Shown: positions 11,844-28,219, counted from the first letter of the stretch. The stretch is DNA of 49,309 nt from an archaeon (GCA_030641225.1 DAOWHW010000019.1:1-49309); one strand, 5' to 3'. Numbers and translations are program-made. The notes: generated by a model not told the origin, from the sequence alone.

Positions 11844-11845
11844 TC

Positions 11846-12331: not shown

Positions 12332-12355
12332 CTTAGATTAAGTTTTTTATTATTT

Positions 12356-12810: not shown

Positions 12811-14973
12811 ATGGTAAGAGAAGATCTTCGCGATTTTCTAAAGCAATTTGAAGCTAAAATAGAAAAAGAGTTAAGAGAGGGTATTGAAGAGGAAGCAACA
12901 GATTACTCCCATGAGTATGATAAATTTAGGAAAGAAACTCTCGCTCCTTTAAGTAAGTATGAAAAAGCTTGTAAAAGTATAGGTAGAATTGTTAGGTTAA
13001 GACTCGCACAAAAAGATAGAGAAAGAACTAAAAGGGCTGTAGAAAGAGCTCATCTTGATATTGAACCAGAAGAGGCTGCTGGCCTGGCTATATTTACATT
13101 AGTTGGCACAATAATTTTTGCCGTTTTAATTTCATTTGCAATTTTTTTGTTGATAGGCACTTTTCCTATTCTGATTTTTGCCTTATTATTTCTTGTATCC
13201 TTTTTTCTTTTTTACTTTTTTAAAACTCTACCATCAAGATTAGAACAAAAATGGCGTTTGAAAGCTTCATCACAAATGGTGCCGTGTGTTCTTTACATAG
13301 TTGTATATATGAGACATACCTCTAATTTAGAAAGGGCCATTCATTTTGCTTCCCAACATCTTCAACCCCCACTTTCTCTTGATTTAAAAAAGATATTTTG
13401 GAATGTTGAAACAGCCAAGTATAGCACAATAAAAGATGCTTTAGATGCATATCTTGAAACCTGGCGTGAGAAGAATCTTGAATTTGTAGAATCTTTTCAT
13501 CTTATAGAATCTTCTTTGTATGAACCTGTAGAATCAAGAAGAATAAGGACTCTAGAGAAAGCTCTTGAGGTTATTCTTGATGGTGTTTATGAAAAAATGT
13601 TGCACTACGCTCACGACGTAAAGAGCCCTATTACGAATATCTATATGTTAGGCATAGTTTTACCAACTCTTGGTCTAGCACTATTACCACTTGCTTCAAC
13701 ACTTCTTCAAGGAGCAATAAAGTGGTATCATGTTGCTCTCCTTTTCAATATACTTATTCCATTTCTTGTTTTTTATATGACTAATAATATTCTAAGCAAA
13801 CGTCCTGGTGGCTCCGGTGAAACAGAACTTCTTGAAAGAAATCCTCTTTATAAGAATTATAAATCGAAAAAACCATACATGATTGCAGCCCTCATAGCAT
13901 TGCCTTTCTTGATACTTGGTTTATTACCCTTACTATTACATTATATTCCCTCGACACCAATTGATTATAATTTTGAGCAGCTTGGTATAGGCTTCTTTGG
14001 TAATCAAACAATTTTTGATTTTAAAATTGATCCAGATACTGGTTCAACAGTTGGTCCATTTGGACCTGGTGCTTTGCTACTGAGTGTATTTATTCCATTT
14101 TCTATTGCATTATTCTTCGCTCTAGCTTACAGACTAAAGACAAAGGCTCTTGTTGAAACAAGAAAAGAAACAAAAAGACTTGAAAAAGAATTTGCTTCAA
14201 GTATCTTCCAACTAGGAAATAGACTTGCAGATGGTATCCCTGCTGAAATGGCTTTTGGAAGGGTAGCTACTTCTCTTAGAGGCACTCCAACAGCTGGTTT
14301 TTTTAATATAGTAAATTCAAATATACAACAAGCAGGAATGAGTGTTAAGAGCGCTATTTTCAGCAAAGGTAGAGGAGCTATTAATTATTATCCCTCTGAG
14401 CTAATCAGAACAAGCATGAGAATTCTTATTGAAAGTGTAAAAAAAGGTCTCGGTGTTGCCTCCAGAGCTTTAATGGCTATAAGTGATTATGTTAAAAATA
14501 TTCAGAAAGTGAATGAAAGGCTCAAGGATTTACTGGCAGATATAACAGCTGGAATGAAAAGTAATATGACTTTTTTAGCTCCTCTACTTGCAGCAATTGT
14601 CGTTGGCTTAGCATCAATGATAACTATGATATTAGGAAGACTTGAATTAATGATTACTACAGGAGCATTAACAGGTTCAGAGGTGCTTCCAGGCTTGGGT
14701 CAACTTGGTGGTATTACAGAAATGTTTAGTATTGTAAAGATGATTCCTCCATACTGGCTTCAAATTATTGTTGGAATCTATATTATAGAAATAATTTTTA
14801 TCCTGACAGGAACTCTTGTAACAATTGAGTCTGGTGAAGACCGTCTCGGAGAAAAAGCAGAAATAAGTAAAACACTCTCAACAGGAATGCTTCTTTATAC
14901 TGTTGCTGCTTTTATTGCAATAATTGCCCTTGCAGTACTTGCAGCAGTAGCAGTGGCGGGAATAGCTGTATAA
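12811..14973 (+). CDS. Type IV pilus/archaellum-type platform protein (FlaJ/TadC/PilC-like, two T2SS-F-like domains)
   Basis: 720 aa with about 9 hydrophobic segments. These alternate with two soluble helical domains at about aa 150-275 and 450-580 (e.g. ASSIFQLGNRLADGIPAEMAFGRVA...NIQQAGMSVKSAI...LIRTSMRILIESVKKG). This is the duplicated GspF/PilC/FlaJ arrangement. Confidence 0.65.
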   Translation: MVREDLRDFLKQFEAKIEKELREGIEEEATDYSHEYDKFRKETLAPLSKYEKACKSIGRIVRLRLAQKDRERTKRAVERAHLDIEPEEAAGLAIFTLVGTIIFAVLISFAIFLLIGTFPILIFALLFLVSFFLFYFFKTLPSRLEQKWRLKASSQMVPCVLYIVVYMRHTSNLERAIHFASQHLQPPLSLDLKKIFWNVETAKYSTIKDALDAYLETWREKNLEFVESFHLIESSLYEPVESRRIRTLEKALEVILDGVYEKMLHYAHDVKSPITNIYMLGIVLPTLGLALLPLASTLLQGAIKWYHVALLFNILIPFLVFYMTNNILSKRPGGSGETELLERNPLYKNYKSKKPYMIAALIALPFLILGLLPLLLHYIPSTPIDYNFEQLGIGFFGNQTIFDFKIDPDTGSTVGPFGPGALLLSVFIPFSIALFFALAYRLKTKALVETRKETKRLEKEFASSIFQLGNRLADGIPAEMAFGRVATSLRGTPTAGFFNIVNSNIQQAGMSVKSAIFSKGRGAINYYPSELIRTSMRILIESVKKGLGVASRALMAISDYVKNIQKVNERLKDLLADITAGMKSNMTFLAPLLAAIVVGLASMITMILGRLELMITTGALTGSEVLPGLGQLGGITEMFSIVKMIPPYWLQIIVGIYIIEIIFILTGTLVTIESGEDRLGEKAEISKTLSTGMLLYTVAAFIAIIALAVLAAVAVAGIAV

Positions 14974-15010
14974 ATTTTATATAGAATTTAAATTTCTTAT
15001 TCAACAATAA

Positions 15011-15679
15011 TTACCAATCAAGATTATAAATTTGTGTAGAATCTTTTCCAAAATAAAGCCATATTGGGCCTTCAAGATAATGTTGGGCAGTCTCATAGTC
15101 ATAGTTAGTGTAGAGATATAATTCTCCTATAGGAAATGGAATTTTTCTTGATATTGCTAAATCACTAGCAGAACTAAGAGTAACTTCATCAACAAGATTT
15201 CCATCTCTTGCGCGCTCTAGTTTATTTGGATTAATTTTATCATACATTTTCAGACCCTCGTAATCTCCTACTTTCATTGACCTTTTTCCATGCTTTATTC
15301 TAAATTTATCCTTAATACCAAAATCACCAGAAGGATCAATTTCTTTTGTTCCAGTTAATGATCTAAATGAACCGTCAAAAACAAGAAATATTCTATAATT
15401 CTTTGTTCCATCTGGATAAGTTGCAAGAAGTAATTTATCAATATAGCTTTTATTTTTCTTAATACCAATATCATCCATTAAGCGCCATCTTTTATTAGAA
15501 AATTCCCATGGATTCCAATCATTCCAATCAATCTCATAACCTTTAAATTTTTTTTCAAATTGATAGGAATCATAATAATTACTTTCTGTTTCTTGAGAAT
15601 TTAGAGAATTTGGTGTTAATAATAAACCACCAGCCACTAGCAAACAACTTGCAAATATTTTTTTAACTAAATTTGACAT
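15011..15679 (-). CDS. Secreted hypothetical protein
   Basis: 222 aa with N-terminal signal-like MSNLVKKIFASCLLVAGGLLLTPNSLNSQ. The mature part is Trp/Tyr-rich. It is on the opposite strand to the surrounding pilus genes. Confidence 0.55.
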   Translation of the reverse strand: MSNLVKKIFASCLLVAGGLLLTPNSLNSQETESNYYDSYQFEKKFKGYEIDWNDWNPWEFSNKRWRLMDDIGIKKNKSYIDKLLLATYPDGTKNYRIFLVFDGSFRSLTGTKEIDPSGDFGIKDKFRIKHGKRSMKVGDYEGLKMYDKINPNKLERARDGNLVDEVTLSSASDLAISRKIPFPIGELYLYTNYDYETAQHYLEGPIWLYFGKDSTQIYNLDW

Positions 15680-15740
15680 TTTACCCTTATCCTTTGTTGG
15701 ATTGGAATAACTTTTTAAAGTTTAAAAACTTTTTTGTTGC

Positions 15741-15896
15741 ATGAAAGATAAAAGGGGTCTTGTCTGGAATGAGATTGCTTGGTGGATATTAGGATTAATC
15801 ATTCTTGCTCTCGTCATCATTTTAATCGTGATTTTACAAAAAAGAGGTATCACTTTACTAGTACAACTTAAAAACTTTTTAAGATTTGGAAGATAA
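15741..15896 (+). CDS. Mini pilin-like protein (51 aa, not in ORF track)
   Basis: My translation is MKDKRGLVWNEIAWWILGLIILALVIILIVILQKRGITLLVQLKNFLRFGR. It has a KRG|L prepilin-type motif plus a hydrophobic helix, and ends 6 nt before the next gene. Confidence 0.55.
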   Translation: MKDKRGLVWNEIAWWILGLIILALVIILIVILQKRGITLLVQLKNFLRFGR

Positions 15897-15902
15897 AATA
15901 AA

Positions 15903-16523
15903 ATGGCTAGAGAAATTATGAGCAATGTTATAAGAGCAATAATTATTGCGGCAGTAATTATAGTTATCGGCGCTTTGGCTGTTATTTTCTTTAATAAAGT
16001 TTTGCCAGTAATAATAGGAGAAGAAATAAGTCTTGAAGATCAACAACAAAATGAAAACAATTTTAATAAACTAATTGAAAATATAGAAAATTGTTATATA
16101 AATGAAGATGATGATTGTTTGTGTGAAGGACTTCCAGATTTTCCAGGAAGTTTTCTCAAAAATTCAAAAATTATTATCAAACAAAAAAATAATGAAGAAA
16201 TCGAAATTAATTGGACATTTAAGAAAAAAACATACAAAAATCAAATTTTGGCTGATATAAAAATTTCTGCCATATATTTTGATACAAAAGAAAAAGTAAC
16301 ATATGGAATCAAAAAAACAATTAATTTTGAAACTGAGCCTCCAACATTTGAACAAATAGGTTTAGAAAAGGGAGTATTTAAAAAATATTATCCAATACTT
16401 ATGACAGGTAAAATTTATAAAAAAGATAATGAAATCTATTTTATAATTAAATATATTGATTATAAAAATCCGACATTAAGAGATCCTGACATAAGAATAT
16501 GTGGTGAAAAGGAAGAAAAATAA
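15903..16523 (+). CDS. N-terminally anchored secreted protein in the pilin cluster (non-canonical signal)
   Basis: 206 aa. MAREIMSNVIRAIIIAAVIIVIGALAVIFF gives a hydrophobic helix without the KKG/KKA motif. The extracellular-looking domain has a Cys cluster (CYINEDDDCLCEG). Confidence 0.6.
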   Translation: MAREIMSNVIRAIIIAAVIIVIGALAVIFFNKVLPVIIGEEISLEDQQQNENNFNKLIENIENCYINEDDDCLCEGLPDFPGSFLKNSKIIIKQKNNEEIEINWTFKKKTYKNQILADIKISAIYFDTKEKVTYGIKKTINFETEPPTFEQIGLEKGVFKKYYPILMTGKIYKKDNEIYFIIKYIDYKNPTLRDPDIRICGEKEEK

Positions 16524-16592
16524 CAAAAGAAAATTTTAAAAACAACTCTTGCTTTTTAAATAAGGAAAATAAAACAAAAGAGGTAATAGATA

Positions 16593-16946
16593 ATGAAAAA
16601 TAAAAAAGCTATAGAGATGAATATTACAACAATTGTTGTAGTGATTCTAGCTCTCCTTGTTCTAGTAATTTTGGCACTATACTTCACAGGTGGGATGCAG
16701 CAATTATGGGAAAGAATTACAGGAGTAGCAGGCACATATGATGAATCAGAGGTGACAAGTGCTAGACAACTTTGTACAACATTTTGTGTTATTGAAGATG
16801 AGCAATCTTTTTGTTCAACACCTTTTAATCTGAGAAAGGGAGAAGAAACTGAAGTAAAGTATTGTGACCAAGACCCTATAAATGCACAAGATTCTCCTAG
16901 TTGTACTAATTTCAAAGATCTTGACTGTAGTCAATATAGAGAATAA
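16593..16946 (+). CDS. Pilin-like protein (class III signal), Cys-rich
   Basis: MKNKKA|IEMNITTIVVVILALLVLVILALYF. The 117-aa protein has six Cys in the mature domain. GAGGT lies upstream. Confidence 0.7.
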   Translation: MKNKKAIEMNITTIVVVILALLVLVILALYFTGGMQQLWERITGVAGTYDESEVTSARQLCTTFCVIEDEQSFCSTPFNLRKGEETEVKYCDQDPINAQDSPSCTNFKDLDCSQYRE

Positions 16947-16960
16947 ACATAAGATAAAAA

Positions 16961-17137
16961 ATGAATAAGAAGGGCGTAGAGCTTTCAATTAATACTATAA
17001 TTATCATAATTCTTGCTATTCTTGTTCTTATAGTTATTTTATTTATTTTTAGTGGTGCTATGAGAGATTTTGCAGCAAATTTATTTGCAAAACTTAAGAC
17101 TGCTCTTGGACTATGGAATTCGACACAAATTCAATAA
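16961..17137 (+). CDS. Short pilin-like protein (58 aa, not in ORF track)
   Basis: My translation is MNKKG|VELSINTIIIIILAILVLIVILFIFSGAMRDFAANLFAKLKTALGLWNSTQIQ. It has the canonical motif with Glu at +2. Confidence 0.65.
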   Translation: MNKKGVELSINTIIIIILAILVLIVILFIFSGAMRDFAANLFAKLKTALGLWNSTQIQ

Positions 17138-17186
17138 AAAAATAAGAAATAAGAAATTTTAAATATTATCTTAATCTTGTTCTTTT

Positions 17187-18218
17187 ATGAATAAAAGAGG
17201 AACACTGATGCTTTTAGAGCAGATAATTAAATTAATAGTTGCAGTTATTGTCATAACTCTTATTATTTATGCTGGTGTTGTTCTCTTTCGAAGTTATTTT
17301 GGTAGTCAAGAAGAACTACAAGCAAAAGGAACTCTTGATGACATTATAATAACATTATCTGAAACAGGAGAAGCAGAAACTTCTGAATTATTTATTATGG
17401 CTCCTTCTGGTTGGAGCATAGTTGCTTTTGATGCTTCACATAATAAGAATGCTGATTTTTATAAGCCAAGTATAAGGCAACCAAATATTGTTTGTCTATG
17501 TAAGAAAAAATGTAAAAGTGAATTTTGTCGTGTAATTGATATGCCTCTAAAACAAGAAGATAAATTAGCAAATATTAAAATTAGAATAATGAAGTTGTGG
17601 ATTAATAATCAAAATACATATTATAAAATAATCAAGGCTAGTGATGCAAAAATTCAAGACAGTCTTTCAGAAGAAAATAGATTAAAAGGTTCTTTATACA
17701 CAGCTTCATCAACAGAACTTGATAAATGGCTTCAAGAAAAAGAGTCTCTTTTAGCTGGGATTAATGAATGTATTATTGATGCTTCAGAACAGACAGGAAT
17801 TCCTTCACAAATAATTCTCGGGATAGCTATCCATGAAAGTAATTGGGGCAAGAGTGATCTTGCTATGGAATGTAATAATTTATATGGCATAAAACAGCAA
17901 GGTCCTGAAGGAATATGTAAAATGTCAACTCAAGAGCAGGAAGGTGATAAATTCATAACAATAAAGGCAGAATTTGCAAAATATAAAACTCAGTGTCAAT
18001 CTGTATATCATTTTGTAGAAACAATATCAAAATCCTTCTATTATGTTGAAGCAATGGAACATACTGATGATATAGAAAAAATGATTTATGCTATTCATGG
18101 CTGTTCAGGACCTTATGCCGGACAAAACTGTATTTATGCTACAGATTTGGAATGGGCTAATAAAGTTTTAGAAATTATAGATGAAATAGAAGAGTCAGAA
18201 GAATCAAAAAATGTTTAA
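17187..18218 (+). CDS. Pilin-like N-terminus fused to a GH73-type glucosaminidase (peptidoglycan hydrolase) domain
   Basis: The N-terminus is MNKRG|TLMLLEQIIKLIVAVIVITLIIYAGVVLF. The C-terminal segment GIPSQIILGIAIHESNWGKSDLAMECNNLYGIKQ...TQEQEGDKFITIKAEFAKYKT matches the FlgJ/LytD-type glucosaminidase signature (ESGWG..S.LA...NNLFGIK ... F..Y). Confidence 0.75.
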   Translation: MNKRGTLMLLEQIIKLIVAVIVITLIIYAGVVLFRSYFGSQEELQAKGTLDDIIITLSETGEAETSELFIMAPSGWSIVAFDASHNKNADFYKPSIRQPNIVCLCKKKCKSEFCRVIDMPLKQEDKLANIKIRIMKLWINNQNTYYKIIKASDAKIQDSLSEENRLKGSLYTASSTELDKWLQEKESLLAGINECIIDASEQTGIPSQIILGIAIHESNWGKSDLAMECNNLYGIKQQGPEGICKMSTQEQEGDKFITIKAEFAKYKTQCQSVYHFVETISKSFYYVEAMEHTDDIEKMIYAIHGCSGPYAGQNCIYATDLEWANKVLEIIDEIEESEESKNV

Positions 18219-18336
18219 AAAAAATAAAAAAGGGCTTACAACAGAAATTCTAATCAAAATTATTTTATATATAATTCTCTTTGCACTAATTGCCAGTGCG
18301 ATTACTTATCTTCTTAAAAGATATGGTGTAATATAA
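18211..18336 (+). CDS. Mini pilin-like protein (41 aa, not in ORF track)
   Basis: My translation is MFKKNKKG|LTTEILIKIILYIILFALIASAITYLLKRYGVI. The ATG overlaps the stop of the GH73 fusion gene, suggesting translational coupling. Confidence 0.5.
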   Translation: MFKKNKKGLTTEILIKIILYIILFALIASAITYLLKRYGVI

Positions 18337-18338
18337 TT

Positions 18339-18689
18339 TTATTTTTTCTTTCTTATCTTAATAACTTTTTTCTTGTTTATATCTACTATAACATTATACT
18401 TAAACTTCTCATAAGTTTCATCGTTCTCTATTCTAAGAGCTAGTTCAAATTCTTTATTAGGTATAAAATCTGTTATGCGTGTCTGCCAAATATATTTTTC
18501 TTGCCCGTCATAAGCTCTCCCCCAAGTATGATTCACAGACTTAAGACCATATTTACGCATGGCTTTGTTAAGGTCTTTTTCTATATTATTTATTACCTCA
18601 GTAGGTACGCCTCCAGAACTACAACCAAAAATTACTAGAGCCAATCCTGTCACAATTCCATTTCTTATCTTATTCTTTAAATTTTTCAT
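18339..18689 (-). CDS. Putative lipoprotein
   Basis: 116 aa. MKNLKNKIRNGIVTGLALVIFGCSSGG is a lipobox-like signal with Cys. It lies on the opposite strand inside the pilin run. Confidence 0.55.
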   Translation of the reverse strand: MKNLKNKIRNGIVTGLALVIFGCSSGGVPTEVINNIEKDLNKAMRKYGLKSVNHTWGRAYDGQEKYIWQTRITDFIPNKEFELALRIENDETYEKFKYNVIVDINKKKVIKIRKKK

Positions 18690-18735
18690 TTCTCTGGGGA
18701 GATAAGTTTATTAATAAATCTTTCTGATTAATAAT

Positions 18736-19623
18736 ATGAACAAAAAGGGGGCAACAGTTCAGGCAATAATTATCTCAATTATAATTATTCTATTAAGCGG
18801 AGCAATAATCTTTTTGTTTTTTAGATTTCTTCCATATAAAGAAATGATTGATAAGGAGGCATGTCATCAATCTGTTATATTGAGAAGTCAGTCAATTGCT
18901 GGTTTTGAACCAGGAAAACATTTAGTGCCATTAAATTGTAAAACTCAAGAAATAGAAATTAGCTCAACAAACGAACAATTTATAGCAAGAGAAATTTCTA
19001 ATGCCATGTATGATTGTTGGTGGATGTTAGGAGAAGGCAAATATGATTTTTTTTCTGATCCAAGCTGGCAAGAAATTGTTATTGAATTTGGAACAGCACA
19101 AGGAACAGCAAAAGCCAATTGTGTTGTCTGTAGCATAATAAAATTTACAGAAAATGTGCAAGATAAAAACCTTAGAATAGATGTTGCAGAATTTATGGAA
19201 TCAACAAAAATACCGACAAAAAATATTACTTACTTAGAATATTTGGCAGGACAGGAAGATGTAAGACTTCCTACAGGTCTAGAAATAGAAAAAATTGACA
19301 CGAGTCAAGAATATGCAATAGTTTTTATAGGTATAAGAGGAGGCAATTTTTGGTCAGGACTAATAAGTGGTGTTGGTGGTGGTGCTATAGTTGGTGCCAT
19401 AACTGGATTAGCTTTTGGTGGACCACATCCATATTTGATAGCTGCAACAACAGTTGCTGGAGATGTTCTTGGAAAACTCAATGCCATAAAAGAATTTCAA
19501 AATGCAAGAATAGCTTCTGTAAGATGTGATGGAGAAAAAAAAGGCTGCTTTATTCTTTATCTTATTCCTTTAACAGTAAAAGATTTAAGCATGACTTGCC
19601 AGAATATAGAAAGTATTTCTTAG
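18736..19623 (+). CDS. Pilin-like protein with a C-terminal glycine-zipper hydrophobic segment
   Basis: The N-terminus is MNKKG|ATVQAIIISIIIILLSGAIIFLFF. The mature part has eight Cys. Residues about 202-246 read GGNFWSGLISGVGGGAIVGAITGLAFGGPHPYLIAATTVAGDVLG. Confidence 0.7.
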   Translation: MNKKGATVQAIIISIIIILLSGAIIFLFFRFLPYKEMIDKEACHQSVILRSQSIAGFEPGKHLVPLNCKTQEIEISSTNEQFIAREISNAMYDCWWMLGEGKYDFFSDPSWQEIVIEFGTAQGTAKANCVVCSIIKFTENVQDKNLRIDVAEFMESTKIPTKNITYLEYLAGQEDVRLPTGLEIEKIDTSQEYAIVFIGIRGGNFWSGLISGVGGGAIVGAITGLAFGGPHPYLIAATTVAGDVLGKLNAIKEFQNARIASVRCDGEKKGCFILYLIPLTVKDLSMTCQNIESIS

Positions 19624-19661
19624 TAAAATCTAATAAGATTTATTAATGCTTTTTTCTTAAA

Positions 19662-20012
19662 ATGATTATGCTAAATAAAAGGGGTTTTGAGCTTAGCTGG
19701 GAGTTTATTTTTAGTCTTTTGTTTATTATAGCAATCATAGTCATGATGAGTATCTGGGTGGGTGGACAATCATCTGGATTTGGGCTTCAAAAACAAATTT
19801 TAGCTAAAGAAATCTGTATTTTAATAGGATCAGCAGATCCAAGCACAGAAATTATAATTGAACATGATAAAAAATTAACTATAGAAAAAAAAGATTCTGG
19901 AATTGTCGTAAAAAAAGGCGAATTTGATAGGGGATATTTTTATGATTGTTATCTTCGAGATAATATTGAATTTTCAAAAAAAGATGATTTCACAATTATC
20001 AAAATAAATTAA
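19662..20012 (+). CDS. Pilin-like protein (class III signal)
   Basis: MIMLNKRG|FELSWEFIFSLLFIIAIIVMM; 116 aa. Confidence 0.7.
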   Translation: MIMLNKRGFELSWEFIFSLLFIIAIIVMMSIWVGGQSSGFGLQKQILAKEICILIGSADPSTEIIIEHDKKLTIEKKDSGIVVKKGEFDRGYFYDCYLRDNIEFSKKDDFTIIKIN

Positions 20013-20055
20013 AAAAATAGATATAAAAGATAAAAAAAATAGGTGAAAAGATAAA

Positions 20056-20511
20056 ATGGGGATGAAAAATAAAAAAGCTCAGCTTGGACATGCAATGACT
20101 TGGCTTCATAAATTTTTTATTCTTGTTCTTGTTATTGGTGGTGTAGTTGCTATAGTCGCAGCGCATTATTCACAACAATTTGATATTCGTGATCAAGAAA
20201 TGAACATTATAGCACGAAAACTTATTGAATGTATTGCTCCAAATGGACACGTAACAAGATTCGACAAAGAGGTTATTGAAGATTGTTTTCCTTTTGATGA
20301 AAAAGAGTTTTTTATTAATATTAGTTTAGAAAATGACTATATTTCTATTGGAGATGGTTTTCTTGAAATACTATGTCAAGCAAAAGAAGAAGGTACGAAA
20401 GCCAAGTTTTACCCAGCTTGTCTAAAAGAAAATTATTATGTTTTCAAGGAAGATAAAGAAACTAACTTAAAGATTTTTATAGCAATCAAAAAATTTGAGA
20501 AAAATTTATAA
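20056..20511 (+). CDS. Pilin-like protein (class III signal)
   Basis: MGMKNKKA|QLGHAMTWLHKFFILVLVIGGVVAIVAA; 151 aa with four Cys. AGGTGA lies upstream. Confidence 0.7.
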   Translation: MGMKNKKAQLGHAMTWLHKFFILVLVIGGVVAIVAAHYSQQFDIRDQEMNIIARKLIECIAPNGHVTRFDKEVIEDCFPFDEKEFFINISLENDYISIGDGFLEILCQAKEEGTKAKFYPACLKENYYVFKEDKETNLKIFIAIKKFEKNL

Positions 20512-20512
20512 A

Positions 20513-21031
20513 ATGAAACTAAAAAATAAAAAAGGTCAGATAGGAGAGCTCATTTCAGATACAGCAGCATTAATTGTTATTGCTTTTCTTCTATTAATAT
20601 TTTTTATTATATCATCTAGTCTATGGGGATTTCCAAAACCAAATATTGAAAAACAAGCTATAGAAGACTCGCTTTATAATCAAGAACATGTTTCACTTAA
20701 TAACTGGCTAACAAGAAAAGTTGAAGTTAATGTTGGTAGTACAATTCAAGAAATGACTATAGCTGAATTAATAAGACTTTCAGAACTTGACCATAGTTAC
20801 AAGGGTCAGTTAGAAAAAATGGAAGATATGGCTTTTGATAAGATTTATGATACTTACAAAGTAAGGATTATGCTAAGTAAAGATGCTTTTGAACCAGGTT
20901 ATGAAATAATTCCTATTGGAGTTGTTGGTGGTATTTTCACAATTATGCCTACAGTAAGGATTATTAAAAGTCCTTTATTTTATGTTCCCTCAAATGAAAC
21001 AATTGCTGTAAATATGGAAATTCAAAAATAA
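20513..21031 (+). CDS. Pilin-like protein (class III signal)
   Basis: I trimmed the track ORF (20495) to the internal ATG just after the upstream stop. This gives MKLKNKKG|QIGELISDTAALIVIAFLLLIFFII. Confidence 0.7.
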   Translation: MKLKNKKGQIGELISDTAALIVIAFLLLIFFIISSSLWGFPKPNIEKQAIEDSLYNQEHVSLNNWLTRKVEVNVGSTIQEMTIAELIRLSELDHSYKGQLEKMEDMAFDKIYDTYKVRIMLSKDAFEPGYEIIPIGVVGGIFTIMPTVRIIKSPLFYVPSNETIAVNMEIQK

Positions 21032-21032
21032 A

Positions 21033-21845
21033 ATGATAAATAAACAAAATAAAAAAGCGAGTATATTTGCTCTAGGAATGGTTCTAGGAGTAATTATACT
21101 TATGGGTATCGCATGGTATGGTTTTGCAGCAACTAACAAAAATATTTATAAAGGGATTAAAATAATTGATCCGCTCAATTATAAAAATCTAAAAGATAAT
21201 TTTGCTCTTTATCTTAATGAGTCAGCAAAACTTTCGGCAAGCCAATCTTTTTATGAAATCGCAAAGGAAACTGCCATAGATAAAGAAAACCCAGGATGTA
21301 ATATATATTCAGGAAAAGATTATATTATCTGGTCTCAGGAGTGTAAACCAGAACAAAAAATTATAGAAGAGATGTTTATTAAATACTATAATAAAAGTTT
21401 CAATATACTGTTACAAGAATATCCTTTAATTGATACAGAAAAAATAGAATATAACCATATTTTAGAAGAAAATCAAATTAATTCATTTGCGTCTTTAGAA
21501 AAAATCAAAACAACAAAAAAGGCAGTATTTGCCACATATAATGTAAGTTATGAATTTGATCCTTCTACAAATCTCGATATTAAAAAACAAGAGATTCATT
21601 TAGAAGACTTTATCAGTATTTATCAAAAAACAACAAACCAAATAAAAATATGTAAAGAAGAAGAAAATCAGTTAGATTGTATTAAAAAAAATCTTGAGTT
21701 TGAAAGATGGATTTTTTACGTAGATAAAGAAGGTTCATTTTTTATTTTTGAGTTTAAAACCAAAAAATATTTCTTTTTTGAAAATGTTGATGGAAGAGAA
21801 AGATTTAACCCTCTAAAATTAAATTTTGCAATTATTGAAGAATAA
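21033..21845 (+). CDS. Pilin-like protein (class III signal), 270 aa
   Basis: MINKQNKKA|SIFALGMVLGVIILMGIAWYGF, with paired Cys (PGC...QEC; KIC...LDC). The start is 1 nt after the previous stop. Confidence 0.7.
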   Translation: MINKQNKKASIFALGMVLGVIILMGIAWYGFAATNKNIYKGIKIIDPLNYKNLKDNFALYLNESAKLSASQSFYEIAKETAIDKENPGCNIYSGKDYIIWSQECKPEQKIIEEMFIKYYNKSFNILLQEYPLIDTEKIEYNHILEENQINSFASLEKIKTTKKAVFATYNVSYEFDPSTNLDIKKQEIHLEDFISIYQKTTNQIKICKEEENQLDCIKKNLEFERWIFYVDKEGSFFIFEFKTKKYFFFENVDGRERFNPLKLNFAIIEE

Positions 21846-21900
21846 TCGTTTTAGTACAGGAATATTTAAAAAAAGACCTTCTTTTTATAATTATAATAAA

Positions 21901-22872
21901 ATGATTAAGGCAACATATCAACAACTTATTCAAAGAATAGTTCATCTTTCTGGCCTGACTATCGGAGAAATTGAAAGAAGAATTGAGGCTAAAAAAGCTA
22001 AGCTTTCTGGTTTGATTAGTAGTATTGGTGCAGCCCAAGTTGTAGCTGCAGAACTTGGTATTAGTTTTGAGAAACAAAGGTTCAAAATAATAGATATGCT
22101 TATAGGGATGAAAAAAATTAGTGTCATAGGTAAGGTAATAGAAACCTATCCTACCAGAAAATATAGAAGAGCAGAACATGAAGGAGAGATAGGTTCTTTC
22201 CTACTTGCTGATGATGGTTCAAGTATTAGAGTTGTTCTATGGGATACTAATCATATTGATATGATTAGAAATGGGATAATAAAAAAAGATATAGTTATAG
22301 AAATAAAAAATGCTGATGTTAGAGGCACTACAATAAGGGAAATTCATCTTAGTTCTAATGCAAAGATTGAATTAAGTGATAAAGAAATTAAAAATGTTAA
22401 GATAATAAAAGACAAATTACCTTCTAAAAAAATATCTGAGTTTAAATCAGGAGAAAAGATAAACGTTAGGGCACATATTGTGCAAATTTTTCAGCCAAAT
22501 TTCTTTTTAACATGTCCAGAATGCGGAATGAAAATTTCTTATGAGGGTGATAAAGCTGTATGTATGAAGCATGGAGCAATAGCTCCAAAAAAAAGAGCTT
22601 TGGTTAGTCTTGTAATTGATGACGGAACAGAGAATATAAGGGCTGTTGGTTTTAATGAAATTATACTTAAACTTTTCAAACTAGAAGATAAAGAGGTAGA
22701 AAAATTACAAGATTCTTCTTTCTTTCTTAATAAAAAACAAGATCTTCTTGGTAGTGAAATAATTTTTTCGGGTAGAGTTCGACAAAATGTCATGTTTAAT
22801 AGAAATGAGTTTATTTTAAATAATATAGAAGAAGCAAAACCAGGAGATATTATTGAGGATCTTAATAGATAA
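21901..22872 (+). CDS. Replication protein A-like ssDNA-binding protein (OB folds plus zinc ribbon)
   Basis: I trimmed the start to the ATG at 21901. The N-terminus MIKATYQQLIQRIVHLSGLTIGEIERRIEAKKAKLSGLIS..GAAQVVAAELGI is typical of archaeal RFA/RPA. OB-fold-like repeats follow (GKVIETYPTRKY...; INVRAHIVQIF) and then CPECG...CMKHG. Confidence 0.7.
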   Translation: MIKATYQQLIQRIVHLSGLTIGEIERRIEAKKAKLSGLISSIGAAQVVAAELGISFEKQRFKIIDMLIGMKKISVIGKVIETYPTRKYRRAEHEGEIGSFLLADDGSSIRVVLWDTNHIDMIRNGIIKKDIVIEIKNADVRGTTIREIHLSSNAKIELSDKEIKNVKIIKDKLPSKKISEFKSGEKINVRAHIVQIFQPNFFLTCPECGMKISYEGDKAVCMKHGAIAPKKRALVSLVIDDGTENIRAVGFNEIILKLFKLEDKEVEKLQDSSFFLNKKQDLLGSEIIFSGRVRQNVMFNRNEFILNNIEEAKPGDIIEDLNR

Positions 22873-23040
22873 AAAAAAGATAAATAGGGTTTTGAAACAT
22901 ATTTCACGTCAGAATAATCTTTATAAAACTTTTATGCTTCATTCTTATAGTTAAGGGGGCTGAGAATCGATAATTATGTTTTAAAAAAATGCCAGATTTG
23001 AAGACATTTCTTAAAACTTATCATAAAGAATAAAATAAAA

Positions 23041-24021
23041 ATGCCTAAAATTAAAAAAGATAAAATAGAAAATAAGAAAATTTCACTTACAGATCTGCCT
23101 GGAATTGGTCAGACAACAGCATCAAAACTTGATGGGGCAGGTTATAGTGACTTGATGAGTATTGCTGTAATGACTCCTCCTAATTTAAGTTCTGTGGCTG
23201 ATATTAGTGAAAGTGTTGCAAGAAAGGCTATAGCTGCAGCAAGAAAAATGTTAAGGCTTGAATTTGAAGATGCAACACAATACTTAAAAAAAAGAGAAGA
23301 AGTTTTTAAGATTACTACTGGTAGTAAAAATCTAAATAGGTTGCTTGGTGGGGGAGTTGAAACAAGAGCAATGACTGAAACTTTCGGTGCTTATGGTTCA
23401 GGAAAAAGCCAGATTGCTCATGTAATTGCTGTGACAACACAACTTCCTAGAGAAAAAGGTGGAGCAAATGCTAAAGTAGTATGGATTGATACAGAAGGAA
23501 CATTTAGACCAGAAAGAATTAAACAGATTGCCGAACATTTTGGTTTAGATTATATGACAGTATTAAAAAATATTTTTGTGGCTCGCGCTTTTAATAGTGA
23601 TCATCAAATACTTCTTGTAGATAAGGTTATCGATATAATTAAGAAAGGTGAACCAATAAAAGTTATAATTGTTGATTCAATCACAGCACATTTTAGAGCA
23701 GAATTTACAGGAAGAGGACAGCTTGCAGATAGACAACAAAGAATAAATAAACATTTACATAATCTTCTAAGACTTGCTGAAGCACATAATTTAGCAATTT
23801 ATATAACAAATCAAGTCATGGCCCGCCCAGATGTCATGTTTGGAGATCCAACACAAGCTATAGGAGGCCATATTGTTGGTCATGCATCAACATATAGAAT
23901 TTATTTAAGAAGAGGAAAAAAAGGAAGTAGGGTAGCTAAAATGATAGATTCACCAAATCTTCCAGAATCTGAATGTATCTTTTTTATAACAGCAAATGGC
24001 ATAGAAGATGAGGAAAAATAG
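23041..24021 (+). CDS. radA: DNA repair and recombination protein RadA
   Basis: N-terminal HhH (LTDLPGIGQTTASKL), Walker A GAYGSGKSQ, Walker B VIIVDSI, and ITNQV....GGH. Confidence 0.92.
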   Translation: MPKIKKDKIENKKISLTDLPGIGQTTASKLDGAGYSDLMSIAVMTPPNLSSVADISESVARKAIAAARKMLRLEFEDATQYLKKREEVFKITTGSKNLNRLLGGGVETRAMTETFGAYGSGKSQIAHVIAVTTQLPREKGGANAKVVWIDTEGTFRPERIKQIAEHFGLDYMTVLKNIFVARAFNSDHQILLVDKVIDIIKKGEPIKVIIVDSITAHFRAEFTGRGQLADRQQRINKHLHNLLRLAEAHNLAIYITNQVMARPDVMFGDPTQAIGGHIVGHASTYRIYLRRGKKGSRVAKMIDSPNLPESECIFFITANGIEDEEK

Positions 24022-24035
24022 CAATAAAAAATAAA

Positions 24036-24530: not shown

Positions 24531-24538
24531 AAATAAAT

Positions 24539-25345
24539 TTATTTTTTCTTTCTGACTTTTTTCTTTCTTATTTTAGTTTTCTTTTTAATTTTTGTTGTTT
24601 TTGGCTTTGCTTTCTTTTTCTGTGTCTTAATTTTCTTTAGTTTGGCCTTAATTTTCTGCATATCTTCACTTAATTCCCGAAATTCTTTAACAGAACTTGT
24701 AACTGGCTGAATAATTTTTGAAAAAGCTCCTTCTAAAGCTTGAATCTCAGTTCCTAAAGACTTAACATCTCTACCATATTCCTGAACTCTTTCAAGAGTA
24801 GCTGATTGGAGTTTATCGAATGATTTTTCTAATCTCTTAAATCTTTCATCCATACTTTTTAATCTTGATTCCATATAACTTTTAAATTCTATGACATCTC
24901 CTGCTTTTTTTGTGAATTCATTCCATTTTTCAGCAATAATTTCTTCAGCAAGTTCTTCCATAGATTCTGTTGAAGTAGTTGCTCCATAAGCATAAGGATA
25001 AGAATAAGGATATGCTTCAGATCCTGCTTCTGGTGCCTGCGTTGTAGGCATGACAGGGGCTCTTTCTTCAGAAGGATAACTTTCTTCATCCGCATATTCT
25101 CCCCTTTCTTGACTCATTATTGAAGGAACCATTTCTTCTTCACCATATACTTCTTCTGTTTCACCAGTATCAGATTCCATGCCAGCTGTTTTTTCTAATT
25201 CAAGTCTAATTTTTGCCTGATTCATTGCATCATTTATCTGTGTAGGATTATATCCTTCCTCTCTCAAATACTGGATTATATCAGCATCTGTATAACCCTG
25301 TTTAGTTAAATCTAAAACCTCATTAATTGGAATTTTTCTCCTCAT
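24539..25345 (-). CDS. Coiled-coil protein with an acidic/aromatic linker and a polylysine tail
   Basis: 268 aa. It has a small N-terminal helical domain (INEVLDLTKQGYTDADIIQYLREEGYNPTQINDAM), an acidic low-complexity region with YPYSYPYAYG, a heptad-like region and the tail KKKAKPKTTKIKKKTKIRKKKVRKKK. Confidence 0.55.
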   Translation of the reverse strand: MRRKIPINEVLDLTKQGYTDADIIQYLREEGYNPTQINDAMNQAKIRLELEKTAGMESDTGETEEVYGEEEMVPSIMSQERGEYADEESYPSEERAPVMPTTQAPEAGSEAYPYSYPYAYGATTSTESMEELAEEIIAEKWNEFTKKAGDVIEFKSYMESRLKSMDERFKRLEKSFDKLQSATLERVQEYGRDVKSLGTEIQALEGAFSKIIQPVTSSVKEFRELSEDMQKIKAKLKKIKTQKKKAKPKTTKIKKKTKIRKKKVRKKK

Positions 25346-25383
25346 CTTATTAATTTAAAAATAGATTTTCAAGTTTTTATTTT

Positions 25384-25782
25384 TTACTCTTCTTCTTCAA
25401 TTGGAATAATTTCCCCTTTTTTGTATTTAAGTGCCTTTTTTATTAGTCTTTTAACATCATCTATTGTGGCAAACTTAAGGGGTTCAAAAATTTTGATATA
25501 TCTTTCAAAAACCTTAAGTTCATCTCTTCTTGCAAATTCAGCATTTTCAGCAACAATGTGATCAACTTTATCTTTTATCCTGTCAATTTCATTTTTTATA
25601 TTCCTTACGTCTTCTTTTAAAATAACAAGTTCTTTATTTAGCCTACTATTTTGTTTCAGAATTGTCTGGCCTAAAGTGAGAAGCCTTTCCTTAATTAACC
25701 TTGTTTTTTCTTCAACATCATTTACTCTAGTACTAAAATCTGAAAGTAAAGCAGAAATTGCTCCTAATTCTTTTTCATCCAT
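25384..25782 (-). CDS. Small coiled-coil protein
   Basis: 132 aa, with heptad-like sequence through most of its length. It is transcribed divergently from the pilus ATPase. Confidence 0.55.
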   Translation of the reverse strand: MDEKELGAISALLSDFSTRVNDVEEKTRLIKERLLTLGQTILKQNSRLNKELVILKEDVRNIKNEIDRIKDKVDHIVAENAEFARRDELKVFERYIKIFEPLKFATIDDVKRLIKKALKYKKGEIIPIEEEE

Positions 25783-25918
25783 TTTTCCTCTTTTCTATCT
25801 TTTAAAAAAGAAATTTTGATTTAAATATTTATCTTGTTCTAAATTGTTTTATAGTAATAATTAAAAATATACGTTTACTTGTAAATAAGAATAAAAGTAA
25901 AAGAGGAAAAAGAATAAT

Positions 25919-28219
25919 ATGATATTCAAGCCAAAAACAAAATTATATGGGTATGAAATTACAAGAGAAGCTGGCCAGGATGTTATGTATATTAATTATC
26001 TTGGTGCCCCGTATGTACCTAGTATTGCTGATTCTCCTATTGTTATGGCAAGAGTTATTGACTATTTGATTGAATCTCCAAATGTTTCGAGAGTTGTTTT
26101 TGTTCAGCAAAGAAATTATAGTTATGATTTTAGACAGGTTGCCTTACTTATTGAAGTAGGTCAACTCTATGTTCATCTAATTAAACAAGAAAGAATTCTT
26201 GAAATGTCAACATTAGAGCCAGGAAGATGTCACATGCATCTACCTCAAAGATATGATACAATGCGTTATCTTTTTCTTACACTACTAAAACAAGATCCAA
26301 TCGGTTGTTATGTTGAGACAAGAAGAATATTAAGAGAAGAAAGAATTATTACGAAAAAAATTCCAAAAAGTGCAAAAAGAGAGCTGTCTTGTCAAGAACA
26401 ATATATTAAACTTCTTTCAAAAATTGTCTTAATGCTAGAAAAATTGTCTATTATAAAACTACTAAAAGGAAAAACTCTTGGCTATAAACTTGGTTATAGA
26501 AATCTATATAGGGATATATTCAGGCCAGAAATAGTTCCTAACTTTACTTTTACGAGATTAATGGCTTCTTTCCCACCAGAATCTGAAATTATTGAACAAT
26601 ATGAAATAGGCCCTTCACATGATAAAAGTACTGTAACAATATTAAAAATTCCAGGAAGAACAAAATATGTTTATCATATTATGGCTCCTGAATTCACTCT
26701 TTCAGAGAGCCTTCAAACTCTTGTAAATCTTGCAAGAAATGTTTTACTTGAACATAAACCAAAAGCAGAGGAATTTGTGGATCCAGATAGAATAAGACAG
26801 GTTTTTTTTAATATAGCTAGAGATCTTCTAAGAGAATTGGCTACAACAAAAAAAATATCTTTGACTTATAGACAAACGAATAAGCTGGCTACAATCCTTA
26901 TTAGACATACAATTGGTTTTGGTATGATTGAGGTTCTTCTTCAAGATGAAAGGCTTCAAGATATTATGATTAATGCTCCTGTTGGGATTGTTCCTATTTT
27001 TATTAGACATCAGGATTTTGATGAATGCGATACAAATATTATCCCAAGTCAAGAAGATGCTGAATCATGGGCAGCTAAATTTAGAATGATCTCTGGCCGT
27101 CCATTAGATGAAGCTAACCCAGTTCTTGATACTGAGCTAATTATAGGAACATCAAGAGCAAGAGTTTCAATAATTCAAAAACCATTAAGTCCTTATGGTC
27201 TTGCTTATGCTCTAAGACGTCATAGAGAAAAACCTTGGACATTGCCTTTATTTATTCAAAATAAGATGATAAATCCAATTTCCGCAGGGCTTCTTTCATT
27301 CTTAATTGATGGCAGTAGAACTATGCTTATAGCAGGAACTCGGTCAAGTGGTAAAACGTCTATGTTAGGGGCTTGCATGCTAGAAATTATGTCCCGTTAT
27401 AGAATGATTGTTATTGAGGGAACAATGGAGTTGCCAGTAATATCTTTCAGAAACCTTGGTTATGATATTTTAAGAATGAAAGTCAGAGAGGCTCTTGCAA
27501 GAGAAACTACAGAGTTAAGCGCAGCAGAGGGAATCCGTACTTCCTTACGTTTGGGAGATTCAAGTCTAATTGTTGGTGAAGTTAGAAGTGAAGAAGCATT
27601 AGCATTATATGAAGCCATGCGTATTGGAGCATTAGCAAATGTAGTAGCAGGAACAATTCATGGAGCCTCCCCATATGGAGTTTTTGATCGTGTTGTTCAT
27701 GATTTAAAGGTGCCAGCAACAAGTTTTAAAGCCACTGATGTAATTGTTATTTGTAATCCTATAAAGAGTGCTGATGGCCTACATCGCTGGAGAAGAGTTT
27801 TACAAATTACTGAAGTAAAAAAGCACTGGAGAGAAGATCCAGATGCTGAAGCTGGTTTTCTTGATCTTCTTAAATATGATGTGAGAAAAGATCAACTTGT
27901 CCCAACAGATGATCTAATAAATGGTGAGAGTGAAATTTTAAAAGATATAGCAGGCCAGGTTAAAGGTTGGGCAGGTAGCTGGGATGATGTATGGGACAAT
28001 ATTCTACTTAGATCAAAGATAAAAGAAACTATAGTTAAGGTTGCTGAAAAACTAAAAAAACCAGATCTTCTAGAAGCAGCATGGGTTATTAAATATAACA
28101 ATATGTTTCATGAGATAAGTGACAAAGTAAGACAAGATATTGGTGTGCCAGAAGGTAAAAGGGTTTTTAAGGAATGGAAAAATTGGCTCAAAGCAGAGCT
28201 AAGAAAGAAAAGATTATAA
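25919..28219 (+). CDS. Type II/IV secretion-family ATPase (FlaI/VirB11/GspE-like)
   Basis: 766 aa with Walker A AGTRSSGKTS, Walker B-like SLIVGEVRSEEA and His-box-like VAGTIHGASP. The N-terminal region is long (about 450 aa) and there is a C-terminal extension of about 150 aa. Confidence 0.8.
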   Translation: MIFKPKTKLYGYEITREAGQDVMYINYLGAPYVPSIADSPIVMARVIDYLIESPNVSRVVFVQQRNYSYDFRQVALLIEVGQLYVHLIKQERILEMSTLEPGRCHMHLPQRYDTMRYLFLTLLKQDPIGCYVETRRILREERIITKKIPKSAKRELSCQEQYIKLLSKIVLMLEKLSIIKLLKGKTLGYKLGYRNLYRDIFRPEIVPNFTFTRLMASFPPESEIIEQYEIGPSHDKSTVTILKIPGRTKYVYHIMAPEFTLSESLQTLVNLARNVLLEHKPKAEEFVDPDRIRQVFFNIARDLLRELATTKKISLTYRQTNKLATILIRHTIGFGMIEVLLQDERLQDIMINAPVGIVPIFIRHQDFDECDTNIIPSQEDAESWAAKFRMISGRPLDEANPVLDTELIIGTSRARVSIIQKPLSPYGLAYALRRHREKPWTLPLFIQNKMINPISAGLLSFLIDGSRTMLIAGTRSSGKTSMLGACMLEIMSRYRMIVIEGTMELPVISFRNLGYDILRMKVREALARETTELSAAEGIRTSLRLGDSSLIVGEVRSEEALALYEAMRIGALANVVAGTIHGASPYGVFDRVVHDLKVPATSFKATDVIVICNPIKSADGLHRWRRVLQITEVKKHWREDPDAEAGFLDLLKYDVRKDQLVPTDDLINGESEILKDIAGQVKGWAGSWDDVWDNILLRSKIKETIVKVAEKLKKPDLLEAAWVIKYNNMFHEISDKVRQDIGVPEGKRVFKEWKNWLKAELRKKRL

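Follow-up and report, generated by a model that had tools for sequence, protein, structure and literature searches.

We have analysed a stretch of archaeal DNA of 49,309 nucleotides (GCA_030641225.1, DAOWHW010000019.1, positions 1-49309; at its full length it is called the window below). Between positions 12811 and 28219 it holds a group of genes resembling those of type IV pili, namely a platform-like gene, eleven tandem genes for prepilin-like proteins and, at some distance, the gene of a secretion ATPase. The window has a G+C content of about 30% and encodes RadA, GINS51, FtsY, SRP54, FtsZ and ThiC. The closest relatives of its proteins come from metagenome-assembled genomes labelled Candidatus Pacearchaeota, Woesearchaeota or Nanoarchaeota, and a preliminary description of the sequence, which had suggested a reduced archaeon of DPANN type, was correct on this point. 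That description had also taken the locus for a type IV pilus-like system, an interpretation that is supported overall by the analysis reported here, and had overlooked that one of the eleven proteins, p343, carries a GH73 peptidoglycan hydrolase. The principal genes are listed below (aa, amino acids; a slash marks the end of the leader).

12811..14973, plus strand: 720-aa polytopic protein, putative platform, very divergent, of T2SSF/TadC/FlaJ type, assigned by transitive homology and fold
15741..15896, plus strand: p51, tiny prepilin-like protein, MKDKRG/LVWNEI..., mature part about 45 aa with a conserved C-terminal FLRFGR, no cysteine
15903..16523, plus strand: p206, signal-anchor or atypical prepilin-like protein, MAREIMSNVIRA/IIIAAV..., 4 cysteines
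16593..16946, plus strand: p117, prepilin-like protein, MKNKKA/IEMNIT..., 6 cysteines
16961..17137, plus strand: p58, tiny prepilin-like protein, MNKKG/VELSINT..., mature part 53 aa, no cysteine
17187..18218, plus strand: p343, modular pilin-like protein, leader MNKRG/TLMLLEQ, 10 cysteines, GH73 domain at residues 196-335
18211..18336, plus strand: p41, tiny prepilin-like protein, MFKKNKKG/LTTEIL..., mature part 33 aa, no cysteine
18736..19623, plus strand: p295, pilin-like protein, MNKKG/ATVQAII..., 8 cysteines
19662..20012, plus strand: p116, prepilin-like protein, MIMLNKRG/FELSWE..., 2 cysteines
20056..20511, plus strand: p151, prepilin-like protein, MGMKNKKA/QLGHAM..., 4 cysteines
20513..21031, plus strand: p178, prepilin-like protein, MKLKNKKG/QIGELI..., no cysteine
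21033..21845, plus strand: p270, prepilin-like protein, last gene of the array, MINKQNKKA/SIFALG..., 4 cysteines
25919..28219, plus strand: 766-aa ATPase of FlaI/TadA(CpaF)/GspE type, matching PF00437, with an N-terminal region of about 300 aa

The plus-strand run from 15741 to 21845 consists of 11 open reading frames (ORFs) of 51, 206, 117, 58, 343, 41, 295, 116, 151, 178 and 270 aa. A pattern scan of all ORFs in the window found the start M-x(0-6)-[NK]-[KR]-[KR]-[GA], followed by a hydrophobic stretch, in 10 of the 11; together with a check of the ORFs themselves, this bears out the earlier account of an 11-gene run at these coordinates with ten canonical leaders. In all 11 proteins a short, basic leader, with [KR][GA] as its last residues, is followed by a strongly hydrophobic helix, which is the layout that A24 prepilin peptidases cleave. 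Outside the run the window contains one substantial ORF with a like leader (1657-3519), the remaining matches being a PAP2-like membrane protein and short ORFs. Relatives of the locus were collected by searching for the platform protein in one genome per GTDB species, of which at least 517 species were positive; 80 loci kept with 10-kb flanks and one obtained by look-up make up the 81 related loci, from Pacearchaeota and Woesearchaeota, that are used throughout. Because the leader motif is rare elsewhere in the window and recurs across these 81 loci, it is not a product of chance.

The related loci contain 556 prepilin-like ORFs; the median number per locus is 8 and the highest 12. Their leaders have N at position -4 in 57%, K at -3 in 76%, K or R at -2 and G, A or S at -1 in 58, 34 and 9%, respectively; the residues at -2 and -1 are imposed by the search pattern and those at -4 and -3 are not. 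The commonest leader length is five residues. Among mature parts longer than 80 aa, the number of cysteines is even and at least two in 358, odd in 17 and zero in 83, a bias that fits disulfide-bonded extracellular proteins, and it is even in all 11 proteins of the window, where paired cysteines had already been remarked upon. The N-terminal segment alone is common to the different prepilin-like families, and their order in the array is largely fixed.

By its sequence, the 766-aa protein can be placed in the T2SSE/FlaI/TadA superfamily. It matches PF00437 with an E-value of 2.7e-10 and 39.9 bits against a gathering score of 24.9, which confirms its earlier designation as an ATPase of GspE/VirB11/FlaI type. 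Matches to NCBIfam models were obtained for FlaI (5.3e-36), the TadA family (4.6e-32) and BasE (1.2e-15), all far under the equivalog cut-offs, and among structures in the PDB for Archaeoglobus afGspE (2oap; 5.7e-27), CpaF (3.8e-20) and FlaI (1.1e-13). The Walker A (GTRSSGKTS), Walker B (LIVGEVR) and His box (GTIHG) motifs are conserved. The Asp box reads IEGT in the window, compared with IEDT in 96% of 51 aligned sequences (the window protein and 50 orthologues); the change lies at 27416-27421 (residues 500-501) and involves a GGA codon, and since going from GGA to GAY takes two base changes, a single sequencing error is unlikely. An archaellum was rejected as the identity of this machine, in agreement with the preliminary description: no match to archaellin or to FlaF/G/H was found among the ORFs scanned (those at 12-30 kb and some others, with the region beyond about 30 kb inspected by eye), the sole KaiC-family match is a weak one belonging to RadA, and the ATPase reaches 124 bits with the archaellum FlaI equivalog NF058587, for which the cut-off is 550.

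Relatives of the 720-aa protein and its predicted fold both point to a very divergent platform protein of TadC/FlaJ type. More than 4900 database proteins match it; the best 120, with 56-82% identity, have empty Pfam annotation, and a few are named TadB by JGI. A profile search of 1.84 billion representatives returned 1243 clusters at 50% identity, and in many of the profile hits the alignment falls into two stretches, one in the N-half and one in the C-half. Ten divergent full-length homologues were chosen from the lower-scoring among 150 listed (E-values of about 1e-82 to 1e-103); seven of these match PF00482, six in the N-half and one in the C-half, and one of them, P0393, does so above the gathering score (7.6e-8, 32.8 bits against 25.2). 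An AlphaFold2 model built from 26 sequences has a predicted local distance difference test score (pLDDT) of 78.5 and a predicted template-modelling score of 0.74. When this model was compared with the PDB using Foldseek, all matches with a probability of at least 0.9 were chains of the T2SS-F family. They comprise the cytoplasmic domains of OutF, EpsF and PilC (probability 0.99-1.0, target-normalised template-modelling score 0.63-0.73, root-mean-square deviation about 3 Å, E-value 0.4-1.8) and the PilC chain of 3jc8, a model of the type IVa pilus machine (probability 0.93, E-value 0.066), with E-values (0.07-1.8) that are by themselves not significant.

Mapping of the window proteins onto the related loci showed that the order found most often has the ATPase first, then the platform, 8-11 prepilin-like genes and the A24 peptidase, and that m240, a PRC-barrel protein, three small membrane proteins and two coiled-coil proteins come ahead of the ATPase. 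On this block the order PRC96, m161, m182, m159, cc268, cc132, ATPase, platform is recurrent. Of 78 related loci, 55 have the orthologous ATPase gene no more than 10 kb from the platform, and in 27 the two are direct neighbours; in 18 of the latter the ATPase gene is immediately upstream on the same strand, in several cases with a gap of a few bases or a slight overlap. The median distance in the related loci is 427 bp, compared with 11 kb in the window. Both the window and its closest relatives (L001-L014) are rearranged, with the membrane-protein block inverted upstream of the platform, RPA and RadA after the last pilin gene, where most other loci have an A24 peptidase gene, and the ATPase with its two coiled-coil neighbours 4 kb farther on. 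Because its orthologues are near or adjacent to the platform in related loci, the distant ATPase of the window belongs with the platform, as had been proposed despite the separation. The motor is strongly conserved (52-82% identity) and the surface subunits are fast-evolving.

A scan of the related loci for GxGD motifs identified polytopic proteins of about 280 aa with the motifs ...D-x-K-x-R-E... and G-G-G-D-A-K-L, from which a family hidden Markov model (HMM) of the A24 peptidase was built. A PF01478 A24 peptidase is present within 10 kb of the platform in 36 of the 81 loci, so that this family of systems has a dedicated peptidase of its own; in 28 of the 36 its gene is at most two genes away from a prepilin-like ORF, typically at the distal end of the array. 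D20 and G80-G81-D82 are invariant in the alignment, and all 120 of the best 120 database relatives carry PF01478, several of them being named prepilin peptidase or CpaA. One example matches FlaK_Arch with an E-value of 1.5e-12 and EppA weakly, its N-terminus being FlaK-like and its C-terminus weakly EppA-like.

The C-terminus of p343 matches the GH73 family (PF01832) with an E-value of 6.3e-22 and 79 bits, against a cut-off of 30.2, and also matches the GsmA and FlgJ models of NCBIfam. Aligned to Salmonella FlgJ (5dn4), the domain retains the ESxWG motif with the catalytic Glu (HESNWG), the acidic hairpin (QEQEGD) and YATD, and its identity with the GH73 lysins of Firmicutes phages is 30-36%. 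The N-domain has some 150 aa, among them four conserved cysteines, and belongs to a family present in at least 58 loci. Orthologues in the equivalent array slot carry an SLT (GH23) module in L001, L002, L004 and L005, a 3D module in L011 and L013 and GH73 in L012, and the orthologue in L081, where the array is rearranged, has Amidase_2. The defining motifs are conserved in these modules (ES, GLMQ and AYNxG of SLT, the His motifs of the amidase and the Asp residues of 3D). About 40 other orthologues are without a module and several have extensions lacking a Pfam match. Wall-hydrolase modules are carried by 9 of the about 60 members of the family that were found, all in the sub-clade of the window. 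Within the 81 loci, to which this census is limited, the modules are confined to p343-family proteins; a search of the database with a 50-sequence profile of the N-domain returned only 10 proteins, the word index of that search missing sequences as divergent as this family. An AlphaFold2 model of the N-domain, built from 10 sequences and of low confidence (pLDDT 58.5), places residues 4-59 in a helix, with a seven-strand beta-sheet after it, a layout that would correspond to the 'lollipop' of pilins.

The presence of four wall-cutting chemistries on one scaffold in close relatives argues for selection for peptidoglycan cleavage at that position of the machine. To our knowledge, peptidoglycan synthesis is not known from archaea of this group, and the likely substrate is therefore the bacterial cell wall. 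The idea of a host-contact organelle, which the preliminary description had put forward as conjecture, is still conjectural and gains concrete support from the occurrence of peptidoglycan-hydrolase modules on one pilin family.

Three of the array proteins (51, 58 and 41 aa) are without a globular domain and belong to families conserved by sequence or by position. Orthologues of p51, a candidate Flp/EpdE-like subunit, were recovered by BLAST in 24 loci, and a tiny prepilin-like ORF comes first after the platform in most loci; the C-terminus of the p51 family, ...(F/L)LRFGR, is strongly conserved even in distant loci, which is unusual at such a small size. The sole Pfam signal of p58 is a sub-threshold match to Flp1_like (E-value 0.023), and we suggest this protein as a candidate major subunit. 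In the case of p41, many loci have a prepilin-like ORF of 39-47 aa immediately ahead of the p295 family. With mature parts of 33-53 aa, the size of Flp and EpdE, the tiny proteins as a class are candidates for the bulk subunit of a filament.

Among the larger proteins, p206 has R-A before the helix and is without the NKK leader; its orthologues in the closest relatives likewise lack NKKG, and the one in L011 has the canonical leader KNKKG/VSAIV. The p117 family occurs in 38 loci, often at the distal end of the array beside the A24 gene and sometimes duplicated. The pilin-like family easiest to recover by BLAST is that of p295 (62 of the 81 loci), in which the motifs CHxSV, PLKCKT, MYDCWxMxGEGK and CVxCS are conserved. 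Near its C-terminus, at residues of about 200-250, p295 has an uncharged, Gly/Ala-rich and mildly hydrophobic segment of about 40 residues; by our criteria it is present in 42 of the 62 orthologues, with varying sequence and constant composition. It resembles a glycine zipper, and we speculate that it might insert into a membrane. BLAST recovered p116 in 18 loci, similar-sized prepilin-like ORFs being found elsewhere at the equivalent position, while p151 is in 38 loci and p178 and p270 are in 13 each. The true start of p178 is probably the ATG at 20513 and not the listed TTG at 20495.

Two ORFs on the opposite strand, which the preliminary description had passed over, interrupt this region: 15011-15679 (minus strand, 222 aa) with a Sec-type signal, and 18339-18689 (minus strand, 116 aa) with the lipobox LVIFGC. 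Each has a homologue in one of the 81 loci, unrelated minus-strand ORFs of about 220-320 aa are found at or near these slots in relatives, and these places look like variable insertion slots for secreted proteins. At a distance of 10 kb from the array, the minus-strand ORF at 1657-3519 encodes a 620-aa protein with 10 cysteines and the prepilin-type start MQKKA/QVTLFIIIAVVV... (MQKKA/QVTLF...). It has no match in Pfam or NCBIfam and no homologue in the 81 loci, and may be an orphan large pilin-like adhesin.

The following genes neighbour the motor or the platform.

25384..25782, minus strand: cc132, cytoplasmic coiled-coil protein, divergent from the ATPase gene, with weak matches of coiled-coil type only
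24539..25345, minus strand: cc268, with a small N-terminal helical domain, an acidic linker, a coiled coil and a Lys-rich tail
10338..12646, minus strand: conserved neighbour block, with polytopic membrane proteins of 159, 182 and 161 aa and a 96-aa PRC-barrel protein
29603..30325, plus strand: m240, polytopic membrane protein at the outer edge of the block

Orthologues of cc132 are found in 47 loci and adjoin the ATPase in 33; cc268 is in 43 loci. The divergent arrangement, with cc268 and cc132 on one strand and the ATPase on the other, recurs, and both genes remain beside the ATPase even where it is separated from the platform; they may encode cytoplasmic accessory parts of the motor. The neighbour block is found in 42-45 loci, and its three membrane proteins (10338-12331) travel with the ATPase/platform block. 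Its sole family signal is a sub-threshold PRC match of the 96-aa protein (PRC96; E-value 0.0039, below the cut-off). By eye, the 182- and 161-aa membrane proteins are paralogue-like and share an N-terminal motif of the type ...ILPFLLIFxVVYAILEK.... A soluble ORF of 130 aa (11451-11843) is inserted between two of the three membrane-protein genes in this window only, with no homologue in any of the 81 loci.

The membrane protein at the outer edge of this block, m240, is present in 24 loci. All four orthologues tested gave sub-threshold matches to Peptidase_M50 (E-values of 1.1e-5 to 0.04; for example L015:3445-4068). At the expected HExxH site, judged by eye, the sequences have A-[KQ]-K-x-x-A, and m240 may be an inactive protein of the site-2-protease type; as a candidate for the missing prepilin peptidase it was rejected, being M50-like and not A24, with HExxH apparently absent.

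An RPA-like single-stranded DNA-binding protein and RadA (21826-24021, plus strand) follow directly on the last pilin gene; RPA is close to the array in 25 related loci, and the adjacency, the sole hint of a role connected with DNA, is probably an inherited gene order. Farther away, a polytopic protein of 179 aa (38990-39529, minus strand) is identified as a pacearchaeosortase by NF033505 (E-value 5.8e-47; 159.9 bits, cut-off 80); with it the window has another system of surface-protein processing, independent of the first. A scan for sigma-70 promoters and terminators gave the same counts as shuffled sequence, the underlying model being inapplicable to an archaeon.

We consider it likely that the locus encodes the Pacearchaeota version of a type IV filament machine, of the type IV pilus or Tad/Epd-like kind. 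In the mechanism that we propose, the eleven proteins would be made with a basic leader (consensus M-N-K-[KR]-[GA]) and a hydrophobic helix, and an A24 peptidase would cleave the leader. A hexameric ATPase of FlaI/TadA type would drive the TadC/FlaJ-type platform, which would pull the subunits out of the membrane and stack them through their N-terminal helices into a surface filament. The tiny proteins might form the shaft, and the larger proteins, with their paired cysteines and fixed order, might be minor or tip pilins or a priming complex. The GH73 domain of p343 would then be placed on the filament, where it could cut bacterial wall, the filament attaching to, or locally breaching, a bacterial partner or prey. 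A function of the filament at bacterial walls is a serious possibility that we put slightly short of even. More tentative still is the specific proposal of a tip pilin with an exchangeable peptidoglycan-cutting 'warhead' (GH73, GH23/SLT, 3D or amidase) with which to grip or open bacteria. If true, such a warhead pilus would serve these archaea as an organelle of cross-domain episymbiosis or of predation on bacteria, comparable with a phage tail lysin and mounted on a pilus.

Several observations weigh against this reading in whole or in part. None of the 11 proteins matches a curated pilin or class III signal model in Pfam, including PF04021 (0 of 11), by which the preliminary description had proposed to recognize them, and the four of the 11 that were compared with NCBIfam gave nothing relevant. 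The same description had seen two T2SS-F-like domains in the 720-aa protein: T2SSF membership stands through its homologues and fold, but the domains are not visible directly. A search of 12811-14973 with PF00482 gave no match at E-values up to 1, an outcome that had been named in advance as counting against the interpretation; no NCBIfam or PDB profile matched either, and comparison of the N-half with the C-half by hhalign found no repeat, in an alignment that is shallow (effective number of sequences 1.8). As regards the peptidase, it was true of the window that none is in view, since no G-x-G-D in a hydrophobic context was found and the family HMM detected none at maximum sensitivity; nor did this HMM detect an A24 peptidase up to 10 kb from the platform in L001-L014, the 14 loci closest to the window. 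When the genes that adjoin A24 in other loci were traced into the window, only a partial HIT-family match (43146-43559) was recovered. Because the NKK[GA] leaders are fully kept, a peptidase presumably still exists in the lineage of the window. The Gly in the Asp box might impair the ATPase of the window. We read p343 as a modular pilin from its leader motif and its locus, its pilin fold being unconfirmed, and a Foldseek search with the low-confidence model of its N-domain gave no meaningful match. Since modules are found in a minority of orthologues, in one sub-clade, the machine must have a general function other than wall cutting. Finally, we know of no report of pili or of a host for Pacearchaeota, and none is mentioned in the papers cited here.

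The main rival to a filament is a bindosome-like or pseudopilus-like device for surface display or secretion, in which a short envelope-bound structure would serve exoproteins with class III signals, the hydrolase included; it is followed, in falling order, by scavenging, DNA uptake and a chance cluster of signal anchors. Such a display device would accommodate the large size of some prepilin-like proteins (the longest has 343 aa here, and relatives reach about 600 aa), one of which is an enzyme, and the match of the ATPase to BasE (1.2e-15), and by sequence alone a pilus and a pseudopilus are inseparable. FlaI, TadA and afGspE nevertheless fit the ATPase much better than BasE does, three tiny subunits of Flp/EpdE type without a globular domain are conserved in the array, and Pfam scans of the array proteins detected no substrate-binding-protein domains, and we regard this device as unlikely. 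The hydrolase may instead scavenge amino sugars or peptides from dead wall, or be a recent passenger domain, on a filament that is mainly adhesive. In favour of this are the presence of a module in only 9 of about 60 family members, in one sub-clade, and a proposal that the peptidoglycan of dead cells is a nutrient of Pacearchaeota (PMC11537232). Against it, four wall-cutting chemistries with intact catalytic motifs on a single pilin scaffold speak for selection on wall cleavage at this point of the machine, and a free secreted enzyme would need no pilin module; this explanation of the hydrolase we take to be rather unlikely.

The other two explanations concern the machine as a whole. A short filament of competence type could capture DNA for recombination or nucleotide salvage, as the genes for an RPA-like protein and RadA directly after the array, with RPA near the array in other loci too, might suggest, and a nucleotide-scavenging metabolism has been suggested for Pacearchaeota (PMC8204110). 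Neither a ComEC/ComEA-like channel nor a DNA-binding pilin module turned up in the window or the loci, however; the adjacency of RPA and RadA is perhaps no more than inherited order, and the wall-hydrolase modules would be left unexplained, all of which makes DNA uptake very unlikely. Least credible of all is that the 11 proteins are ordinary uncleaved signal anchors (type II membrane proteins) that cluster by chance and have no link with the ATPase or the 720-aa protein. The lack of matches to curated pilin or class III models and of a peptidase in view would be natural consequences, but the N-K-[KR]-[GA] leader is conserved in 556 ORFs of the related loci, which in dozens of species share a recurring gene order with the ATPase, the T2SSF-type platform and the A24 peptidase.

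Pacearchaeota and their relatives, whose genomes are tiny, belong to the most abundant of the uncultured archaea. With the platform present in so many species representatives, the locus is close to a signature of the lineage, and the combination of a conserved motor with fast-evolving surface subunits is the pattern expected of a host-contact device. Since the Pfam T2SSF and NCBIfam models that we tested fail to recognize the platform family, searches for type IV filaments relying on these models under-count the systems of this group. The fusions of pilin and hydrolase are the first concrete mechanistic link that we have found between the pilus-type genes of DPANN archaea and the peptidoglycan hydrolases of Pacearchaeota and Woesearchaeota, and they make the question of whether these archaea live on bacteria experimentally approachable.

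Type IV filament systems of archaea have been surveyed (Makarova et al. 2016, PMC4858521; bioRxiv 10.64898/2026.04.22.720090), and system 1 (Epd-like), Aap-like and 4A systems are reported from DPANN archaea, system 1 from some of them, in these two sources, neither of which mentions Pacearchaeota or hydrolase-bearing pilins in its main text. The machine described here is a new, very divergent member of this known superfamily. It is like the Epd pilus (system 1) of Methanococcus maripaludis in that some 11 clustered genes provide a single ATPase, a platform, numerous pilins and a dedicated A24 peptidase. The major pilin of Epd is without a globular domain, as are the tiny candidate subunits found here, and the C-terminus of the Pacearchaeota A24 peptidase weakly matches EppA, its N-terminus matching FlaK. 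In contrast to the two platform genes of system 1, there is here a single 720-aa platform that Pfam T2SSF does not see; further differences from Epd are an ATPase of about 770 aa, the N-K-K-G leader, the coiled-coil partners of the ATPase and the wall-hydrolase pilin. A second likeness is to the bacterial Tad/Flp pilus, since structures of CpaF (3.8e-20) and the model of the TadA family (4.6e-32) are among the matches of the ATPase, the JGI names include TadB for the platform family and CpaA for the peptidase family, and the mature parts of the candidate subunits are about 35-55 aa. Unlike Tad, with its TadB and TadC, this system is that of a single-membrane archaeon, has no secretin or outer-membrane parts and has one fused platform; the Flp motif G/xxxxEY is absent.

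The Sulfolobus Bas system assembles sugar-binding proteins. In this bindosome (BasEF, BasABC) class III signals are found on surface proteins that do not form a filament, and these are assembled, as is proposed here, by a pair of ATPase and platform; the match of our ATPase to BasE is weaker than that to FlaI (1.2e-15 against 5.3e-36), and the locus contains no substrate-binding proteins.

FlgJ, VirB1 and the tail-associated lysins of phages are further examples of a peptidoglycan hydrolase tied to a filament or an injection machine and opening a local gap, and it is to FlgJ that the GH73 domain aligns best. FlgJ and VirB1 cut the producer's own wall, whereas here the producer is presumably without peptidoglycan and the target would be another cell, as it is for the phage lysins. 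Ultrasmall, host-dependent bacteria offer a parallel in lifestyle: in Patescibacteria/Saccharibacteria, conserved type IV pili have been proposed, and partly shown, to bind the host (PMC11623550). Those pili are bacterial, with canonical PilB, PilC and PilD, and the abstract of that source reports no fusion of pilin and hydrolase.

Modular pilins are known from bacteria, for example PilB (vWA) and PilC (lectin) of Streptococcus sanguinis (Raynaud et al. 2021, PMC8179133), and have been proposed to sit at the filament tip (PMC8179133). These carry adhesion modules, whereas the modules described here are archaeal and comprise four classes of peptidoglycan-cleaving enzyme; peptidoglycan hydrolases and archaea are both absent from the main text of PMC8179133. 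From Pacearchaeota and Woesearchaeota, peptidoglycan hydrolases have been reported that are mainly GH23 proteins of very large size, and they have been taken as a hint of bacterial partners or prey (PMC8204110, PMC9723730, PMC11537232); pili are unmentioned in these three sources. In the published proteins, which reach 3000 aa (PMC8204110; Vigneron et al. 2022, PMC9723730), the domain is always GH23, and their descriptions make them neither pilins nor part of a pilus locus. By comparison, the hydrolase proteins found here have 320-415 aa and a prepilin-type leader, lie within a pilin array and include GH73, GH23, 3D and Amidase_2 members. We found no report in the literature of a hydrolase and a modular pilin combined in an archaeal pilus locus. 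The exchangeable wall-hydrolase pilin thereby joins two known themes, the modular pilins of bacteria and the peptidoglycan hydrolases of this archaeal group.

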